This document shows positions 1,299-49,107 of a DNA stretch of 64,000 nt, one piece after another; position 1 is the first letter of the stretch; the number at the start of each line of letters is the position of its first letter. Source of the DNA: Candidatus Saccharimonadota bacterium (lineage in GTDB: Bacteria > Patescibacteriota > Saccharimonadia > Saccharimonadales > Saccharimonadaceae); contig JAFWMO010000010.1 in NCBI GenBank assembly GCA_017510705.1, positions 8,678 through 72,677 of the forward strand, in the 5' to 3' direction. The translations under genes were made by a program, and so were the position numbers. The notes below the pieces were generated by a model, which was given only the letters and a program-made list of their open reading frames with translations, did no database searches and was not told where the DNA came from.

Positions 1299-1656
1299 GG
1301 GGCTGACAAAGCTTAGACGGGATATTAACAGCTGTGATGCGTGCCGATTGAATACCGTAAGTATTAAATAAGTGCTAAAAACACTAAGACTGCGCATGTT
1401 GCTTACATGCCAGCATACGCCTAGTTTGATTTTATAGGCTGGTTTCGGCTCAAGGTTCCGTAGGGTCGAAATTATCATACTACGGGAATAGGATTATTTA
1501 GCTGGCGTGAAATAATTAGAAAATTTTGCCACGGCTTTTGTTAGTTTCGTTTTCTGCAGCTAACAATTTCTGCCAAAATGAAACAGAAAACTATGCACGT
1601 AGACTCATAGCCACGTGGTGTTTCGGACCCGGAGGCAGTATCCGGCAGCTCCACCA
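1299..1656 (+). ncRNA. ssrA: tmRNA (SsrA)
   Basis: The 5' GGGGCTGACAAAGCTTAGACGGGAT matches the conserved tmRNA 5' end. The 3' CCGGCAGCTCCACCA matches the conserved 3' end. The acceptor pairing GGGGCTG/CAGCTCC contains a G3:U pair, the Ala identity element. An internal tag frame GCT..TAG runs 1374..1424. Confidence 0.85.
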
Positions 1657-4187: not shown

Positions 4188-4382
4188 ATGCCAAAGTTAA
4201 AAACGCATAAAGGCACCGCAAAGCGTATTAAAATTACCGGTTCTGGTAAGATTACACGCGAGCGTGCATTCGGCAATCATATTCTTGCCAAAAAATCTAA
4301 AGCTAGAAAGCGCAACATGAAGACTGCTGCTGCTATCAACGGCAAAATCAAGAAAAACGTTAAGACAGCATTAGGAGTTTAA
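4188..4382 (+). CDS. rpmI: ribosomal protein L35
   Basis: [21 protein letters not shown] signature; position after infC. Confidence 0.95.
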
Positions 4383-4384
4383 TC

Positions 4385-4732
4385 ATGAGAGTAAAACGCG
4401 GCGTGGCTGCACACGCAAAACACAAGAAGATTTTAAACGCTGCGAAGGGCATGCAACATGCACGCACCCGCAGTTTCCGCCTAGGTAATCAAGGCGTAAT
4501 CAAGGCTCTTCGCTATTCTTATCGCGATCGTCGCAATAAAAAGCGCGACCTTAGAGCTCTTTGGATTACTCGCATCAACAATGCATCAAGAGAACTTGGT
4601 CTTTCCTACTCTCAGCTTATCGCTGGCATGAAGGCAAAGAATATCAATCTCGATCGCAAAGTTCTTGCTGACCTTGCTGTAAACAATCCTGAGGCATTCA
4701 AAGCAATCGTTAATACGGTAAAGGAGAAATAA
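4385..4732 (+). CDS. rplT: ribosomal protein L20
   Basis: [17 protein letters not shown]... signature; infC-rpmI-rplT order. Confidence 0.95.
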
Positions 4733-4993: not shown

Positions 4994-4999
4994 GATAAT

Positions 5000-5334
5000 G
5001 AGTCTTCGGTAAGCCGGGTTCTGTAACTCCCGAGGGAGCCGATGATCATCTATCTAGGTGCCGTATTGCTACAAGCACTCGAGCGGTGAGCGTGCGTCCC
5101 CGAGCCGGGGCTGATAGCACTCCTTGCAACAGGTAGGGTTTGCCTCCGCGCTATATCGCTACCGCGCGCTGTGAGCTCTTACCTCACTCTTTTCACCCTT
5201 ACCCCAAAAGGGCGGTATATGTTTCTGTGGTACTTTCCCTATCCTTACAGACGGTCGCCGTTAGCGACTACCCTGCTCTGTGTTGCCCGGACTTTCCTCT
5301 TGGATTACACCAAGCGATCATCTTTCGGACTCTC
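5000..5334 (-). ncRNA. rnpB: RNase P RNA, bacterial type
   Basis: The reverse complement contains GAGGAAAGTCCGGGC, GGTAAGGGTGAAA..GGTAAGAGC.CAC and ACAGAACCCGGCTTA universal motifs. P1 pairs GAGTC with GACTC. Confidence 0.9.
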
Positions 5335-5344
5335 TAGTATTGTA

Positions 5345-6199
5345 TCATTTTTTTAGAATTTTGTCGATGGCCTCATTAGCCTCGTGGTCTGCAATATAAT
5401 TTTGAGACCTAGGAATATGAGTGAATGAGACTGCATCGAATTGTTTGATTTTTTCCTGTATGTCATTATAAATAGGTATTATGTCTTGGTTTTTGATATG
5501 AAAAATGCCATTTAATTGATTTACCACCATCAGACTATCAGAAAAGAAACGAACAGATTTGTAGCCAAGTTCTATGGCGCGATCTAGGCCCTTTCGCATT
5601 GCAAGATACTCTGCCACTCTGGAAGTAGCAAAACCAATGAATTCGCCGTTTTGTTCAACAATCCGACCTCCACTATCACTGACACAATAGCCAATGCCTG
5701 CTGGGCCAGGATTGCCACGAGAAGCGCCATCTACATTAATGGAGACTGAATTTGCAGTGTCGCGTGGAGATATGCGGCTAGGTGTAATTTTTTCGTTGAT
5801 AATTTCTACGACAGTGGCACTGGTTTCATTTAATCTAATACCAGATTGACTAAAATCCTTGACATACTTATATGCAGTATATCTTTCTCTAGGCTCTGGC
5901 TTGGTGTTACCAGCGACGCCGACTTCGTATACGATGTATAGATTACTAAGCTGACTTGCGCCCTCTGGAGCAAGAAAAGTGATAACGTCTCTTAGTTTAA
6001 TAGAGCTAGCTACAAGACTAGTGTATTCCGTGAGTGAACGTGCAAGGGCTTCCTCTGGCTGTTCGCCAAATTTTATTTTGCCGGTAGGGAGTTCCCAAAA
6101 AACCGGGGCTTCTCCGCGCCCGTGAGAGCGTTTTAAAACTAGCACCCCGTCTTCATTTTTAATTATAGCGACTACACGAATTCTTTGTTTCATGCCCAC
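5345..6199 (-). CDS. fusion protein: N-terminal Nudix-fold domain plus C-terminal RNase HI domain
   Basis: N-terminus has GKIKFGEQPEEALARSLTEYTS, a Nudix-box-like segment. C-terminus has DGASRGNPGPAGIGY..AEY..SDS..ADHEAN, the RNase H DEDD pattern. Confidence 0.7.
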   Translation of the reverse strand: MGMKQRIRVVAIIKNEDGVLVLKRSHGRGEAPVFWELPTGKIKFGEQPEEALARSLTEYTSLVASSIKLRDVITFLAPEGASQLSNLYIVYEVGVAGNTKPEPRERYTAYKYVKDFSQSGIRLNETSATVVEIINEKITPSRISPRDTANSVSINVDGASRGNPGPAGIGYCVSDSGGRIVEQNGEFIGFATSRVAEYLAMRKGLDRAIELGYKSVRFFSDSLMVVNQLNGIFHIKNQDIIPIYNDIQEKIKQFDAVSFTHIPRSQNYIADHEANEAIDKILKK

Positions 6200-6356
6200 C
6201 TTTTTTTAAAAGCCCTACCGACCTGTTTTCCCCGTAGTAAATACAAGGTGGGTAAAATCTTATGCGATACATCCACGGATGTAAGCCACGAAATCCCTAA
6301 AACATGATTATTCAGGAAAATCATGTTGCCGATAGGGCTAATTTAATTATAGCACG

Positions 6357-6995
6357 TCACCCGCCTACCACAAAATAAAAGAATTGGAGTATCCCATTCA
6401 TGCCATTTACCATAATGTTGGAAAATACTGGGCCGAGGAGGAGGATGAGTATATATATTATAATAATGCCGTATTTTTCCATTGCAGCTAGATATGGGCG
6501 GACGCCATCAGGAGAAATAGCATATAACAATCTAGAGCCATCTAGTGGCGGGATTGGGATAATGTTGAAAATCGTAAAACCTATATTAACAATTACGAAT
6601 TCGGAAACAATGAACATTGGTAGTTCTCCGGCTGAACCGTATAGTAGGCCAGTGAAGTGGCCGATAAGAAAAGCTACAAAAGCCAATACTAAATTTGTAA
6701 GTGGGCCAGCGATAGCGACGAGTGCCATTCCCCATTCGCCCCATTTAAGATTACGGCTGTCTACCGGAACTGGCTTAGCACCACCAAATACAGGTGCGTT
6801 CATCATATATAATAGTACTGGCACAATAATAGACATAAATGGATCTATGTGTTTTATCGGGTTTAGCGTGAGCCTACCGGCATATTTAGCAGTCTTATCA
6901 CCCAAAAAATAGGCAACCACGCCATGCATAAGCTCGTGGAGAATAACCGAAACAAGAACAATGGTTAAGATAATAAAAATAGAAAGGATATTCAT
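6357..6995 (-). CDS. site-2 protease family (M50) zinc metalloprotease
   Basis: HELMHG motif in the first TM helix; polytopic membrane protein; TGA stop. Confidence 0.75.
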   Translation of the reverse strand: MNILSIFIILTIVLVSVILHELMHGVVAYFLGDKTAKYAGRLTLNPIKHIDPFMSIIVPVLLYMMNAPVFGGAKPVPVDSRNLKWGEWGMALVAIAGPLTNLVLAFVAFLIGHFTGLLYGSAGELPMFIVSEFVIVNIGFTIFNIIPIPPLDGSRLLYAISPDGVRPYLAAMEKYGIIIIYILILLLGPVFSNIMVNGMNGILQFFYFVVGG

Positions 6996-13478: not shown

Positions 13479-13495
13479 CAAAAAGCCTACAAAAA

Positions 13496-13522
13496 GGCCC
13501 CGCAAGGGGCCTTGATTTATTT
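13496..13522 (+). terminator. intrinsic terminator
   Basis: GGCCCC gcaa GGGGCC stem followed by a T-rich tract. Confidence 0.7.
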
Positions 13523-21710: not shown

Positions 21711-21766
21711 AAGTATATAATAACATAAAAAATAAGCTCTTTAAAGAGCTTATTTTTTATTCTTTA

Positions 21767-26950: not shown

Positions 26951-26984
26951 TTTCACGAAAAAACCGAACATGCTGTTCGGTTTT
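26951..26984 (-). terminator. intrinsic terminator after the 82-aa gene
   Basis: Perfect 11-bp stem AAAACCGAACA/TGTTCGGTTTT followed (on the minus strand) by TTTTTTCG. Confidence 0.75.
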
Positions 26985-35896: not shown

Positions 35897-35960
35897 TTAT
35901 CTTCTCCTTCTATATATATTATAGCACTCTGCAACAAAAATATCCCCCTAGGGGGATATT

Positions 35961-36179: not shown

Positions 36180-36304
36180 ATTGGTGAGTATTATACCACA
36201 GATGAGAAAAGAAAGCAACAAAAAAATGCCGAAGGCATTTATTTATGACGGATCCGTTTGCGATGCTCCGGAGACGACAAAAAAAGCGCCGCTAGGCGTT
36301 TTTG

Positions 36305-40240: not shown

Positions 40241-40681
40241 ATGAAAAAAATTCTTTATCGTAACCCTTATGACGCTGAAAATTTCGACATGAAAAGATAT
40301 TTGAAATCGCTAAACAAATACGCTAAGATTTCCGAAAAAGAAGCCGAGGAGGCATTGGCAGCGTTTGACCAATATGAAACTATGCATGTTTCCTGCTTGA
40401 TTGAAGCCGGTATCAAATTGATTGAAGAAAAGACCGACAAGAAAACTGCAAAGGCATATTTTATGGAGCACGAGGAATATTTTGATGAAGGCAAGTTCGA
40501 GAGGCTTCGTCGCATTACCGGCTATCTAGTAGGTACCTTGGACCGCTGGAATGACGCAAAGAAAGCTGAGGAAAAAGCACGTGTAAAGCACTCTGTGAAT
40601 TCTGCAATTGATGACGCTGCTCGTCTTGCGGCACTAGAAACCCAAGCTATGGAACACAACGTAGCCTACGCAACACGTTAG
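40241..40681 (+). CDS. small protein carrying a class III RNR (NrdD) C-terminal glycyl-radical motif
   Basis: The C-terminus RLRRITGYLVGTLDRWNDAKKAEEKARVKH aligns with my recollection of the E. coli NrdD C-terminus, RRVCGYLGSPDARPFNAGKQEEVKRRVKH. GAGGA SD. Confidence 0.6.
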   Translation: MKKILYRNPYDAENFDMKRYLKSLNKYAKISEKEAEEALAAFDQYETMHVSCLIEAGIKLIEEKTDKKTAKAYFMEHEEYFDEGKFERLRRITGYLVGTLDRWNDAKKAEEKARVKHSVNSAIDDAARLAALETQAMEHNVAYATR

Positions 40682-41655
40682 TTCTCTATCAATTTACAGA
40701 CAAGAGCCGTAAGAAGGCTCTTTTCTGTTGGGTTGGACTCGGCAATTAGGAGCGCAAGGGCGGTAAGAGCGCGGTCGCTGATTTTGGTTTCGCCATTTTC
40801 GGTGAGATGATAGTCGTTGACTGTGAGAAAGACCACAAAAAGTAGAGCGCCGATACGTTTGTTGCCGTCGTAAAACGGGTGATCTTTAATAATGAGATAG
40901 AGGAGATTGGCAGCTTTTTCGGCGATAGATGGATAGACATCTTTGCCATCAAAAGTCTGCGAGATTGCACCAAGACTAGAAGAAAAAGCATCACCACGTG
41001 GTTTGCCAAAAAGCTCGTCGCCTTTTACATTTTTCTTGAGAGACGTAATGATGCTACTGCAGTCAGATTCGGTAAGAAGTTTGATGGAACGCTTCTTGCC
41101 TTTAACGAAGGAGATGTGCCCCTCGTCAAATTCTTGCAAGGCCTTAAAACTTGGGGAGTATTTGGTAATAACTTCTAGGATGCCGCCAGCTTCGTCTGCA
41201 GAAAGATCAGAAGCGGCAACAAGGCGTTTGACAATGCCAAGCGCACCTTCAATTTCGTGAAGCTTCTTTGAATCAAGTTCTTTCAGGCGGCGATCATTGA
41301 TAGCTACGCCATCCACTACGTAATGATGCAAAACTTTGGTGGCCCAGATACGAAAGTCGGTGGCTTTTTTGGAATTAACGCGGTAACCAACAGAGATGAT
41401 GGCGTCGAGATTATACATTTTGACCCGATAAGTCTTTCCGTCTGTGGCAGTATGTGCAAAAAATGCACATACTGAACTTTCGTCCAGCTCACCATCACGA
41501 AAAATGTTACGAATGTGGCGCCCAATTACCGTACGGTCTACACCAAAAAGCGCAGATAGTTGCTCTTGCGTCGCCCAGATAGTTTCTTCATCTATGTCAA
41601 CTTTGAATATAACTTCGCCCTCATGGGCTTTATAGATTTCAACAGCTTTTTCCAT
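40678..41655 (-). CDS. RhuM-family N-terminal domain fused to a Fic/Doc domain
   Basis: The N-terminus IWATQEQLSALFGVDRTVIGRHIRNIF is RhuM-like. The C-terminus HPFYDGNKRIG is a Fic/Doc motif. The start is likely ATG 41655 (GAAAGGG SD). Confidence 0.7.
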   Translation of the reverse strand: MEKAVEIYKAHEGEVIFKVDIDEETIWATQEQLSALFGVDRTVIGRHIRNIFRDGELDESSVCAFFAHTATDGKTYRVKMYNLDAIISVGYRVNSKKATDFRIWATKVLHHYVVDGVAINDRRLKELDSKKLHEIEGALGIVKRLVAASDLSADEAGGILEVITKYSPSFKALQEFDEGHISFVKGKKRSIKLLTESDCSSIITSLKKNVKGDELFGKPRGDAFSSSLGAISQTFDGKDVYPSIAEKAANLLYLIIKDHPFYDGNKRIGALLFVVFLTVNDYHLTENGETKISDRALTALALLIAESNPTEKSLLTALVCKLIEN

Positions 41656-41727
41656 TTTTACCCTTTCAGTATGTGCAGCATACACATACTAATAATAACA
41701 CGGCTTATCCTATTTTGGAACAAGCTG

Positions 41728-46045: not shown

Positions 46046-46459
46046 TTAAAAATATAGTCTTCGGAAACCTTTTTTGACTTTTTGCATGTCATCTTCGGCG
46101 ATTTGCCCTAAACGACTATAAAGTCTAGCTGTACTAAAAGTTCTTGCCTGCGATAGGACTGCGCAAATATCTTTCTCTTGAAATCTAAAACCCACGTACC
46201 AAGCCCCGTCATGTTTTTGCGTTGACAATGGAATGCCTAAGAAACCAAGATGTGTTAGTTTTTTATAAATCAACACTGGTCGTGAAAAATATTTACTTTT
46301 GCCGTTTATTTCTACGCCAACATTTTCGCCTACTGCTACCCACCAAATTTCGCCATCAGTAATCTTTGGTATTTTATTCGTGCTAATATTATGCTTGCGC
46401 TCTTTTACCGGAAACCACATTTCCAAATTTTTATGTTTGTCTTCAAACTCTTTGTCCAT
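46046..46459 (-). CDS. PemK/MazF-like toxin family protein, no adjacent antitoxin ORF
   Basis: GEIWWVAVGENVGVEINGKSKYFSRPVLIYKK and LSQARTFSTARL resemble the MazF/PemK fold pattern. Confidence 0.5.
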   Translation of the reverse strand: MDKEFEDKHKNLEMWFPVKERKHNISTNKIPKITDGEIWWVAVGENVGVEINGKSKYFSRPVLIYKKLTHLGFLGIPLSTQKHDGAWYVGFRFQEKDICAVLSQARTFSTARLYSRLGQIAEDDMQKVKKGFRRLYF

Positions 46460-46554: not shown

Positions 46555-48111
46555 CTATTTAGCGATGCAACGGACGGAGCGACCGTAGGTACGGTAGTAA
46601 CTATATTGTGGAAAGATATCGCTAGTATTCATACGAAGACCATACATGTTGTTGCTATTGTAACGTGTAGATGACCAAAAGTAGCCGAAAGATCCCCTAT
46701 AAAGTACCGTATCATTGAGGAAGTAACCCGAAAGAGGAAAACGACCGGCGTTACGAAAATTAGTATAAGCTGGATTGCCAGCAATGTCGCCAGTAGCACC
46801 AGAAATGGCATTAGCCAGTTTCTGGTATTCACCGCCACCCTTATTGGTGCCAGAATTCGCAATGGCCCCGCCAGTAGGCATACGCCAGCCAAATGGGCAA
46901 ACATCTTCGTCGGCATCTATGGCGGAGCTAGGGCTATCATAATTAGTACCAGATTCTGTCCCGTCGCCATAGCAATATGAGCCAGCACTAGCAGCACAAT
47001 AATTATAGTATCCACCCGCTTTCCATTGGCCGATATTGTCTAAGCCACCACCATTGGAGCCGGTGTAGATGTAATTCTTATTGGACACATTGATAAGAGG
47101 CGCAGAGTAACTAGTAGAACCATTCCAGTTGGTAGAGACTGCAGCTGTGGCATATTTGCCACTAGCATCTGTAGCCGGGTCACGTGGCGGGGTAGTACCA
47201 AATAAGTATCCAAGTGAAGTATCTGTGGCATTAGTATTGGTACTGTCCATAATGGATTGGACATTGGAATTGGTGAGGTCTATGGCTAAGTTGTCTAGTA
47301 ACCAGCAGCGGTTGTCTGCTAATTTGCCTACGTTGTAGACGGCTTCGTCGCGAGTATCAATGAGTTTGATGATAGGAGTTTCGCCATTCAAGCGCGTTAC
47401 GGAATTACAAATAGACGTACTCATGTCTTGCATTTTGTAATAGCCCTTGAATTTTGTAACACCTTGCACCGCGCTAAAAGCGTCGTGAAAAGAAACTGGA
47501 GCGGGATTGGCGACGACTGCAAAATTAATTGTATTAGTGTACTCACCCGGGTCAATATCATCACTGGCCTTGGCGGCAATACGAAAATTAAGCCCTGTGA
47601 GAACGGCAGAATCTACGGAAAAGATGGGATTAAGAGTATTGGTAAGACCATTATAATTAGACCACGCACCTGGATCGCCAGCTTTTTCGGTGCTAGTGCC
47701 ATTGCCAGCAAAAGTGCTAGCTTTGATACTATATCCCCAAGTGTCATCCGTGATTAATGTGCCCAGGTCTGCGTCTGCGGCAATACTAGAAAATTTTGAA
47801 GTAGTGCCAGTCTGGGTGAGATCCGAGGTAGTGCTACTAGTGGATGCAGAGACAACATACCCAGAGACATTGTTGCTTTCCACATTAAGAGTTACAATGT
47901 TGCTACTACGAGTGGCACCTGGAGTGATATCGTGAATATAAATATCATTGCTGGAAAGTGTGGCGGTGAGGGTGGGATTTAATGTGAACTGAATTTCTAC
48001 ATCAGCAGAGCCACTTTCGCCAGTTGCTCTAGCCTCATTAATATACACACTACTACATAACGTAGGAAAAAGTAGTAGTGTGCATATTGATAGGGCTAGT
48101 CTACGCTTCAT
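46555..48111 (-). CDS. secreted protein with C-terminal Fibrobacter-succinogenes-paralogous (FISUMP, TIGR02145-like) domain
   Basis: Signal peptide, and a C-terminal region with CWLLDNL, FGWRMPT, GYFWSST and GRSVRCI motifs. Confidence 0.65.
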   Translation of the reverse strand: MKRRLALSICTLLLFPTLCSSVYINEARATGESGSADVEIQFTLNPTLTATLSSNDIYIHDITPGATRSSNIVTLNVESNNVSGYVVSASTSSTTSDLTQTGTTSKFSSIAADADLGTLITDDTWGYSIKASTFAGNGTSTEKAGDPGAWSNYNGLTNTLNPIFSVDSAVLTGLNFRIAAKASDDIDPGEYTNTINFAVVANPAPVSFHDAFSAVQGVTKFKGYYKMQDMSTSICNSVTRLNGETPIIKLIDTRDEAVYNVGKLADNRCWLLDNLAIDLTNSNVQSIMDSTNTNATDTSLGYLFGTTPPRDPATDASGKYATAAVSTNWNGSTSYSAPLINVSNKNYIYTGSNGGGLDNIGQWKAGGYYNYCAASAGSYCYGDGTESGTNYDSPSSAIDADEDVCPFGWRMPTGGAIANSGTNKGGGEYQKLANAISGATGDIAGNPAYTNFRNAGRFPLSGYFLNDTVLYRGSFGYFWSSTRYNSNNMYGLRMNTSDIFPQYSYYRTYGRSVRCIAK

Positions 48112-48269
48112 TTCACCACCTTGTTAGTTTGATATTGGCGGCGCCTCAATAAAAATCGACACCGTGCGGGTGTCTTAAACCATTTATCGTCACTGCATAC
48201 ATAAGTACTTAGTGCGGCACGGTGCCGATTTACAAGTACTTATTTATAAAAAAGTGCAGTGATATTATA
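48112..48269 (-). promoter_or_regulatory. structured 5' leader with aptamer-like domain, terminator and competing antiterminator (riboswitch or attenuator candidate)
   Basis: -10 TATAAT (reverse complement of 48264..48269). P1 CACUGCA/UGCAGUG. Paired AAGUACUU copies. Terminator GACACC/GGUGUC followed by UUUUU (48148..48174). A 15-bp alternative pairing links 48214..48231 with 48153..48170. Confidence 0.55.
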
Positions 48270-48306
48270 AATGATTTAAGACATTTTAATTGTATCACGC
48301 TGATGA

Positions 48307-49107
48307 TTAAATAGTCAAGAGATATTCAATCTTGGCGTTGCGACGAGCGTCGTCGTCTGCTTTTGGCAAATCTTCCCTACTGGAATAATCTTCAAAGATT
48401 GGAAGGACGTTTTTGATCTCACCGTCATAAATTGGTGGCTTGTCGTAAACGCTCCAGAGGATAATGCGGAGACTTGGTGCGTTTTTGGCATAAAATTCTA
48501 GAGCTTTGGAAGTGGCACGGATAAACTCCTGCTCGGTTTCTCTAGAATGGCGCCAAGCGCGGCCAGAAAGATATTTTTCGGTGACTACTGGAGAAATCGC
48601 AATCATCAAAATTGTTGCTTCGTAATTCCCTGCTATGAGTAGCTCTAGCAAGATGCCTTCCATTTCTGGATCTAGAAGCGTAACATCTAGGACAATGTCA
48701 TATCCACCTTTGATGAGCTCGGACAAAGTAAGAAATAGCATGATGGTGCTAAACTCGTCTGTCATTTTGCGAAGGTTTTCGTCGCCGTAGTAATCTTTGA
48801 TTTCTTGGTAGTGCGGGTGATATTCCACAAAGCGACGTGCAGCCATTAGAATCGGCTCAAAATTATTTTTTTCACAGTAGGCTTCTACGGCTGGGAGAAT
48901 TTGAGTAGTCTTGCCAGAGCCAGAGAGCCCTGCGATACGGATAAAACGGTGGTTTTTGGTGGCGGCAATCGTAAAATCTTCTACCACCTTTTTGAGAATG
49001 GCTGGATATTCGGCAAGCCCAACTTGCCACTCTGGCTTGACCTCGCTTGGCCAGTGAGCTCGCATATATTCTATAACTTTGACTAACCGTGGATCACTTT
49101 GAGACAT
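48307..49107 (-). CDS. zeta-toxin-like P-loop kinase family protein
   Basis: IAGLSGSGKTT Walker A; size and pattern resemble the zeta toxin / AAA kinase fold. This is weak. Confidence 0.4.
   Translation of the reverse strand: MSQSDPRLVKVIEYMRAHWPSEVKPEWQVGLAEYPAILKKVVEDFTIAATKNHRFIRIAGLSGSGKTTQILPAVEAYCEKNNFEPILMAARRFVEYHPHYQEIKDYYGDENLRKMTDEFSTIMLFLTLSELIKGGYDIVLDVTLLDPEMEGILLELLIAGNYEATILMIAISPVVTEKYLSGRAWRHSRETEQEFIRATSKALEFYAKNAPSLRIILWSVYDKPPIYDGEIKNVLPIFEDYSSREDLPKADDDARRNAKIEYLLTI

Follow-up and report, generated by a model that had tools for sequence, protein, structure and literature searches.

A stretch of 64,000 nucleotides from a Candidatus Saccharimonadota bacterium (contig JAFWMO010000010.1; the window, meaning here the whole 64-kb stretch) carries a long structured RNA leader on its minus strand, between a promoter and the Shine-Dalgarno (SD) sequence of a gene for a secreted FISUMP-family protein. 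The leader is considered to belong to an uncatalogued family of structured 5' leader RNAs which precede paralogous secreted FISUMP genes and, in the most likely reading, act in cis as transcription attenuation switches; as drawn from sequence comparison, the chances of this reading are judged to be evenly balanced. On the evidence of covariation the folded leader itself is real and is kept by compensatory mutations in ~40 related genes, and the terminator strand, termed X, is predicted to pair in three evolutionarily conserved ways: with the terminator's 5' arm (T5'), with a segment at the apex of the long 5' hairpin P1 (M1) and, in most members, with a downstream segment (M3). The leader was read on the minus strand across 47900-48500. 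The initial annotation of this locus, made without database searches, had listed a closing helix, two AAGUACUU octamers, an apex hairpin, a terminator, an SD sequence and an ATG; all of these are present on that strand where it had placed them (Table 1), and the RNA structure that it proposed does lie in the sense orientation between the promoter and the SD of the secreted-protein gene.

The leader family and its P1 hairpin

Relatives were collected in two ways, by scanning GTDB genomes with the protein as guide and by scanning metagenomes with a DNA pattern. The metagenome pattern required GGCACC upstream of the terminator, which biases that subset towards M1, and M1 there is not independent evidence; the GTDB loci found through the protein were not selected for GGCACC and also show M1. 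The 39 distinct leaders share one architecture, differ in sequence and precede homologous secreted FISUMP-family genes of ruminant and gut Saccharibacteria; the three closest homologues (L001, L002 and L005) build the same architecture from different sequences. From 5' to 3', the consensus starts with an extended -10 element (TG-n-TAtAAT) and a 4-5 nt spacer, after which P1 opens with (G)UGC; P1 spans 110-155 nt across the family and is formed of ~25 bp, a U-rich insertion in the 5' strand and ~20 bp above it. At the apex, M1 is made up of an A-rich stretch, GGCACC, a GNRA-like tetraloop and GG. Further on, P1 ends in ..GCAC, which overlaps T5' (GCACC) of a short hairpin, for which X supplies the loop, the 3' arm and the U-tract (CCUUGC-GGUGCC-AUUUUU); most leaders then display M3 (AUGGCACCGCAAGGGG), which pairs with X, before the SD and the start codon.

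The conservation check proposed in the initial annotation came out in favor of the leader, which is present in relatives with abundant covariation. Every downstream open reading frame (ORF) of sufficient length belongs to one secreted protein family, and about half of the full-length homologues in that family lack a leader. A covariance model built from an alignment of 35 leaders (A2) gives a single match in the window (48150-48284; 68.4 bits, E 4e-14), and in 80 other GTDB loci it matches only upstream of the homologous gene and on the strand of that gene; weaker mirror matches on the opposite strand reflect the symmetry of M1, X and M3. The gene upstream of the leader runs divergently in L001 and L002, and the terminator therefore serves no upstream operon. 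When viral contigs were scanned for the terminator pattern, the matches were ordinary AAUGGCACC-loop-GGUGCCAUUUU terminators in unrelated phages, with one exception: contig IMGVR_UViG_3300029305_004784 of IMG/VR (L133) contains a complete leader on its minus strand (323-480) before a 252-aa member of the same protein family. This contig may be a misfiled Saccharibacteria fragment or a phage-borne copy.

P1 is more stable in the sense than in the antisense orientation in all 39 leaders (-53.5 versus -42.9 kcal/mol), and G.U pairs number 182 in the sense strand versus 71 in the antisense; the RNA is therefore considered to be made in the direction of the gene. RNAalifold recovers a basal helix of 16 bp from alignment A2, in which 15 of the 16 pairs show double changes; this helix is 97.5% paired, compared to ~40% when the partners are slid. 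MAFFT aligns only the base, the U-rich loop, the apex and X, and the upper half of P1 is not structurally aligned; support for the upper helices comes from per-sequence folds and a strain variant. That variant, from a near-identical strain (runs X12 and X13) and reconstructed from a list of differences, is identical in its flanks, M1, X, M3 and SD, while the interior of P1 (48186-48274) differs by 17 substitutions, with 21 bases inserted and 1 deleted, and still folds as one hairpin. Compensation is direct in the second helix, where CACUGCA/UGCAGUG becomes CACUGUC/GACAGUG, and the AAGUACUU octamers are strain-specific, being replaced by another complementary pair. The next ~170 nt of the flanks differ by one change, so that the interior of P1 changes far faster than its surroundings; this could stem from exchange with another leader, or from template-switch mutation in a quasi-palindrome.

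None of 200 shuffled sequences is as stable as P1 of the window (48283-48171), and the z-scores of P1 in 10 members range from -7.3 to -11.1. The fold described in the initial annotation lies far beyond chance, though the element had been drawn too small, without the 17-bp outer helix; the span that the annotation gave has a minimum free energy (MFE) of -48.4 kcal/mol and a z of -3.8. The 5'-side insertion of P1 averages 17.9 nt, against 1.1 nt on the opposite side, and contains UUUU in 34 of the 39 leaders; in alignment A2, positions T35-T37 of this hinge reach at least 90% conservation, and the U-rich loop is retained in the strain variant.

The TATAAT at 48269-48264, which had been taken as the promoter, lies inside P1, has no counterpart at the same position in other family members and is altered in the strain variant; it is probably not the promoter. 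In 27 of the 39 leaders the last base of the -10 hexamer is placed exactly 5 nt ahead of the T in the (G)TGC/TGT anchor, and a TG is found at -15/-14 in 28 of 39. Because the window matches this geometry (TG-a-TACAAT, TAAAA, UGUC), its promoter is placed at 48297-48289 and the RNA start at ~48283; a promoter scan reads the full element as TTGACT-18-TG-a-TACAAT (48318-48289), and strong members of the family have a similar -35 box, such as TTGACA in L148 and L186. Transcription is thus predicted to begin at ~48283 +/- 2, at the base of P1, giving a leader of ~172 nt with its hairpin starting from about +1.

Terminator strand X and its alternative partners

The terminator-like element of the window, GACACC-CGCAC-GGUGUC followed by GAUUUUUAUU (48174-48148), was recognized both by reading of the sequence and by a terminator scan; it has the G+C-rich hairpin and the following U-tract of an intrinsic terminator on the transcribed strand. 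The element is conserved as GCACC-N4-6-GGUGCC-AUUUUU, no block in the family is more conserved than X (GGUGCCAUUUUU), and the helix between T5' and the 3' arm (T5':T3') is 98.3% paired and nearly invariant. The helices that would exclude this terminator, as expected of an attenuator, are conserved as well: the base of P1 shares 4 nt with T5', an overlap (..GCAC, then C) that is present in nearly all family members, and the M1:X helix covaries. The initial annotation had proposed mutually exclusive folds; alternative pairings are indeed found, while the competition of the 5' end of P1 for T5', and M3, had both been missed.

The 15-nt complementarity between 48231-48217 and 48167-48153, with one G:U, was confirmed by a repeat search and is the pairing of M1 with X in the window. 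Over 18 positions in 35 leaders M1:X is 90.8% paired, and 11 of the 18 pairs have changed on both sides; sliding the partners lowers pairing to 40-48%, none of 500 shuffles reaches the observed values, and when X is permuted across the leaders, the variable positions on the loop side reach p ~5e-5. A matching one-base insertion is common to the window and L063, where AAAU-C-GGCACC faces GGUGUC-G-AUUU. Two leaders of one genome assembly, L070 and L085, contain wholly different, self-matched M1/X pairs (AAACCGACACC.. with ..GGUGUCGGUUU, and ACAACCCUAUGAGG with CCUCGUAGGGUUGU), a pattern that speaks for direct complementarity within a leader type and against a protein-binding site common to both. 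The bases at the 5' end of P1, T5' and X also co-vary in the window (UGUC/GACA/GGUGUC), in L063 and in L085. Covariation thus supports the antiterminator pairing that had been proposed; as a nested fold it costs ~10 kcal/mol in the window.

Complementarity of X to the downstream M3 has a z below -2 in 29 of 34 other leaders, with a mean duplex energy of -23.9 versus -11.1 kcal/mol. The copy in the window is weak; its possible partners are GGUGUC, through two G.U pairs, and the SD GGUGGUG, of which the MFE fold of the window chooses the SD. Masking of the SD by M3 was rejected as a general rule, as it holds in the MFE of the window and other leaders display no general complementarity of this kind. 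The loop of the X:M3 hairpin contains two recurrent motifs, UACGCCUUUU and ACUACCCCGUUUAC (for example L027 2336-2350, L065 2306-2318, L178, L152 and L165); in L065 and L178 the first motif (UACGCCUUUU) has complementary AAAAGGC(G) copies near the start codon, which suggests a possible further layer of long-range pairing.

Table 1. Sequence features of the leader and the adjoining start of the gene, in window coordinates (MFE, minimum free energy; SD, Shine-Dalgarno sequence; ORF, open reading frame).
Feature	Position	Strand	Basis or remark
-35 box TTGACT	48313..48318	minus	Promoter scan, 10/12 matches with TG; overlaps 3' end of upstream zeta-toxin-like gene
Extended -10 TG-a-TACAAT	48289..48297	minus	Family-conserved promoter position, 5 nt before first paired base
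P1, 113-nt 5'-terminal hairpin	48171..48283	minus	MFE -45.1 kcal/mol, z -8.8
P1 outer helix, 17 bp	48283-48267/48187-48171	minus	Repeat search
TATAAT of the initial annotation	48264..48269	minus	Internal loop of P1 between outer and second helices
P1 second helix CACUGCA/UGCAGUG	48262-48255/48197-48190	minus	
U-rich asymmetric loop CUUUUUUAUAAAU	48242..48254	minus	5' strand of P1; family hinge, consensus UAUUUUUAU
P1 upper helix	48241-48233/48211-48202	minus	
Two AAGUACUU octamers	48241-48234 and 48210-48203	minus	
M1, apex segment AAAUCGGCACCGUGC	48217..48231	minus	Complementary to X; includes apex hairpin
Apex hairpin CGGCA-CCG-UGCCG	48227-48215	minus	
T5', terminator 5' arm GACACC	48169..48174	minus	Begins with GACA, the 4 nt that end P1
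X GCACGGUGUCGAUUU	48153..48167	minus	Terminator loop, 3' arm (GGUGUC, 48163-48158) and start of U-tract
U-tract GAUUUUUAUU	48148..48157	minus	After 6-bp hairpin; terminator scan
M3, degenerate third copy GGCGCCGCC	48137..48145	minus	Tentative
SD GGUGGUG; start codon ATG	48120-48114; 48111-48109	minus	Secreted FISUMP-family gene
28-bp imperfect hairpin in signal-peptide codons (~5-28 of 518-aa ORF)	48029..48099	minus	MFE -35.2 kcal/mol

The proposed switch and its rivals

In the proposed mechanism transcription would start at the base of P1. If the 5'-terminal bases hold T5', or if M1 captures X, the terminator would not form and the polymerase would read on; X would then pass to M3, leaving the SD free. 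If T5' wins, transcription would stop at ~48148-48152. Candidate triggers are a protein, start-site choice or the level of a nucleoside triphosphate (NTP), and the leader RNA itself; a small-molecule ligand is rated below these, since the leader shows no apparent conserved core resembling a binding pocket. The term attenuator-like fits the element better than riboswitch.

Folding energies bear on this mechanism in two ways. In RNAs ending at the U-tract, forcing the terminator costs a mean of +2.7 kcal/mol over the MFE, and in the window the terminator fold is the MFE; the states with P1 fully closed and with the terminator formed are therefore finely balanced. The terminator-formed state requires P1 to be frayed by 4 bp, and in the nascent RNA its energy is near equal to that of the closed P1. 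The nested M1:X fold, on the other hand, costs a mean of 11.4 kcal/mol, because the 45-55-bp P1 must melt, and a simple two-state picture is therefore unlikely as drawn. By these calculations M1:X can only be workable as a pseudoknot, in trans, or with a helper. It is probably formed as a loop-to-tail pseudoknot, in which P1 folds back at the U-rich hinge and is not melted; arm lengths of ~25 and ~20 bp are consistent with a fold-back that brings the apex near the base.

Several observations weigh against transcription attenuation, beginning with this cost of the nested M1:X pairing and with the fold-back geometry, which is a conjecture that folding tools cannot score. The leader terminator is weak, with 5-6 bp and, in most members, 2 nt between the stem and the U-tract; gene-end terminators in the window have stems of 7-12 bp, compared to the 6 bp of the leader. 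A short stem suits a tunable site, yet it weakens the claim of termination. Covariation in T5':T3' is thin (1 of 5 pairs, in 3 sequences), L066 and L070 are without a clear T5' arm, and the shuffle and permutation tests ignore shared ancestry. Searches of RNA runs with the gene plus leader, with member L160 and with the region of the transfer-messenger RNA (tmRNA) and RNase P RNA left the leader uncovered; the only signal in these runs was one low-depth contig inside a homologous gene.

The leader could alternatively be a constitutive element for mRNA stabilization or processing, in which P1 is a protective 5' hairpin or an RNase III substrate and the short hairpin with its U-tract is only a pause site or a structural module; this is considered unlikely. 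A hairpin beginning at the presumed +1 downstream of a strong promoter with an extended -10, a long, near-perfect basal duplex of 16-20 bp and downstream genes for secreted, probably abundant surface proteins are all in keeping with such a role, as is the most stable fold of the full-length RNA, which is simply P1 plus P2. The covariation of the apex with the terminator loop and 3' strand, the joint change of the 5'-end bases, T5' and X, and the balance of the folds within ~3 kcal/mol would, however, go unexplained by stabilization. It is quite improbable that the locus is a separate small-RNA gene, whose ~135-150-nt product would use M1 as an antisense-like recognition loop and whose transcription would reach the protein gene by read-through only. 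Such a gene would account for the element having its own promoter and terminator, for the long stem with an exposed apex that is typical of antisense RNAs, and for the locus-specific complementarity of M1 to X; against it, every copy of the element is joined, over a short and constant distance, to the SD of genes from a single family, no other promoter is evident, its terminator is weak, and it has no known target except its own X.

A metabolite or ion riboswitch of a new class is regarded as very unlikely. In that case P1 with its U-rich loop and apex would be the aptamer, and binding of a ligand would select between M1 and the base of P1 for release of the terminator; the layout of an expression platform with mutually exclusive helices, the conserved unpaired U-rich loop and apex and the lack of an Rfam match would agree with this. 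No feature indicates the aptamer that the initial annotation envisaged: the helices of the leader are long and regular, a multi-helix junction and a pocket-like group of conserved unpaired bases are both lacking, the U-rich loop being the only conserved unpaired block, helix sequences vary freely and conserved positions lie mostly in the alternative pairings. The regulated genes, moreover, encode paralogous surface proteins rather than transporters or pathway enzymes, and half of the full-length paralogues have no leader. Least likely of all, and already largely refuted, is an element acting as DNA, such as operator palindromes, a miniature inverted-repeat transposable element or inversion repeats. 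The long DNA palindrome, the inverted and direct repeats formed by M1, X and M3, and the two AAGTACTT sites 31 bp apart (2 here, versus 0.9 copies expected in the whole window) would suit it; the G.U pairs and the asymmetry in stability favor a sense RNA instead, the single copy per window keeps a constant place and orientation relative to promoter and SD, and the two M1/X specificities in one genome count against a shared protein site. A palindromic operator pair was rejected, as AAGTACTT is replaced in the strain with identical flanks and is absent from the other 38 leaders; so was a mobile repeat, since matches lie only upstream of the homologous gene on its strand and the copies differ in sequence while keeping structure. 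No inverted or joined forms indicating DNA inversion between M1 and X were found in 8 DNA assemblies, in which contigs can hide rare forms.

Known RNA classes were also considered. The initial annotation could not assign the leader to a known riboswitch class, in agreement with Rfam 15, which gives no match to the leader at its gathering thresholds and, at E up to 10 over 47900-48500, only generic miRNA-type hairpin noise far below threshold; 13 other leader-bearing loci likewise have no family match. A trp-type leader-peptide attenuator was rejected because an ATG-initiated ORF crosses X in only 20 of 39 leaders, with frames divided 10/9/8 and an SD in 1 of 27. A T-box (UGGCACCGC, GCCA) was rejected as there is no RF00230 match at E 10, the GCCA in X is lost in the window, L070, L084 and L085, and the downstream genes encode secreted proteins; 6S RNA was dismissed for lack of an Rfam 6S match.

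Transcription attenuation in cis could be taken one step further, in a form considered a long shot. Each paralogous gene would have its own "addressed" switch, in which M1 would recognize no X other than that of its own leader type; pairing would occur within a pseudoknot, or in trans through an accumulated pool of short leader RNAs, so that a transcribed locus would keep its own terminator open.

Genomic setting and comparison with known systems

The gene downstream of the leader encodes a 518-aa secreted FISUMP-family protein (46555-48111, minus strand) with a weak Fib_succ_major (FISUMP) match; its homologues carry PF09603 and are annotated as Candidatus Saccharibacteria or Nanosyncoccus from sheep, goat, buffalo and other gut samples. 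The 28-bp hairpin in its signal-peptide codons (48029-48099) has the same nucleotide sequence in L002 and L005, the proteins of which otherwise share 62-65% identity, and is kept in L001 by paired synonymous changes (CUACUAC/GUAGUAG to CUGCUGC/GCAGCAG). In assemblies this stretch is resolved as its own 76-nt unitig at ~2x depth, whose upstream side connects to a second gene start of the L002 type; the hairpin may be a further regulatory element, or a site where paralogues frequently recombine. A diversity-generating retroelement (DGR) with an RVT_1 gene at 5537-6700 targets the closest homologue (L001, 72% identity): a 214-nt repeat at the 3' end of the homologue's gene matches a copy beyond the reverse transcriptase gene (4296-4506 and 6756-6969, in reverse orientation), and of 27 substitutions, 26 are located at adenine positions in the template copy. 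The window has no second copy of the 3' end of its own gene and L002 has no reverse transcriptase gene; a link between the leader and the DGR was rejected, as the DGR is found in L001 only and is absent from L002 and the window.

Toxin-like genes surround the locus. A zeta-toxin-like kinase gene (48307-49107) lies directly upstream, ending at 48307, a PemK/MazF-like toxin gene (46046-46459) lies directly downstream of the secreted-protein gene, and a Fic/DOC-like ORF (40678-41685) was recognized by eye only. The window also holds tmRNA (1299-1656, plus strand), class A RNase P RNA (4995-5333, minus strand) and five tRNA genes. Perfect palindromic hairpins flanked by an A-run and a T-run, in the form of bidirectional terminators, are found at 13484-13513, 35939-35960, 36224-36240, 26962-26982 and 21728-21757; the M1:X duplex shares this form (A-run, GGCACC, GNRA, GGUGCC, U-run), split by ~55 nt.

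Saccharibacteria and other Patescibacteria have tiny genomes, with few transcription factors known in them, and neither the literature searched nor the Rfam scan yielded a cis-regulatory RNA described for them. A leader family tied to one expanded, secreted, lectin-like protein family would provide a handle on the control of the surface repertoire of these episymbionts, one surface protein of which is additionally diversified by a DGR in at least one relative (L001). The leader would also be a compact model for co-transcriptional strand exchange, and the family could supply orthogonal regulatory parts for organisms that are becoming genetically tractable. If true, the "addressed" switch would amount to locus-specific positive feedback, and hence a heritable on/off choice among paralogous surface proteins, without DNA rearrangement, in ultrasmall bacteria of the candidate phyla radiation.

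The stem-loops at the 5' ends of ompA, aprE and S-layer mRNAs resemble the leader in that its hairpin begins at the inferred +1, with no single-stranded 5' tail, before a secreted-protein gene; unlike them, the leader is much longer, is followed by a terminator-like hairpin and shows long-range M1:X covariation, for which a stabilizer would have no need. HK022 put, the EAR element and LoaP leaders also place a structured RNA right after initiation, then a terminator, ahead of genes for surface structures. The leader, however, has no similarity to these in sequence or fold and no Rfam match (EAR is in Rfam), and local complementarity to the terminator would explain its effect without modification of the polymerase. 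With 6S RNA it shares a long irregular hairpin and a large asymmetric loop with -10-like U/A-rich sequence; 6S RNA is normally encoded by a single stand-alone gene, whereas the leader is fused to the mRNAs of one gene family and occurs in several differing copies per genome.

The 5' end of the leader can be compared with leaders whose control depends on the 5' end of the RNA. In Bacillus subtilis pyrG, extra 5' G residues pair with the 5' strand of the terminator, and Escherichia coli pyrC and codBA are controlled by start-site switching; similarly, the first bases of the leader (GUGC; UGUC in the window) are complementary to the terminator 5' arm and could act as an antiterminator only if transcribed. 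Unlike pyrG, the leader has no run of C or G suited to reiterative transcription, and its 5' bases, instead of being a short free tail, are paired at the foot of a very long hairpin. With terminator/antiterminator leaders at large (riboswitch expression platforms, PyrR and BglG/SacY-RAT), it shares a location between promoter and SD, a hairpin and U-tract with alternative partners, and close energies between folds; compared to PyrR, BglG/SacY-RAT and other attenuators it is without a known sensor domain or binding-site consensus. We know of no attenuator in which one strand has three maintained partners and a locus-matched competitor at the tip of a hairpin. In the leader, M1 would reach the 3' strand of the terminator from the tip of a 45-55-bp hairpin, and the number of competitors would be three, rather than the one seen in attenuators in general.

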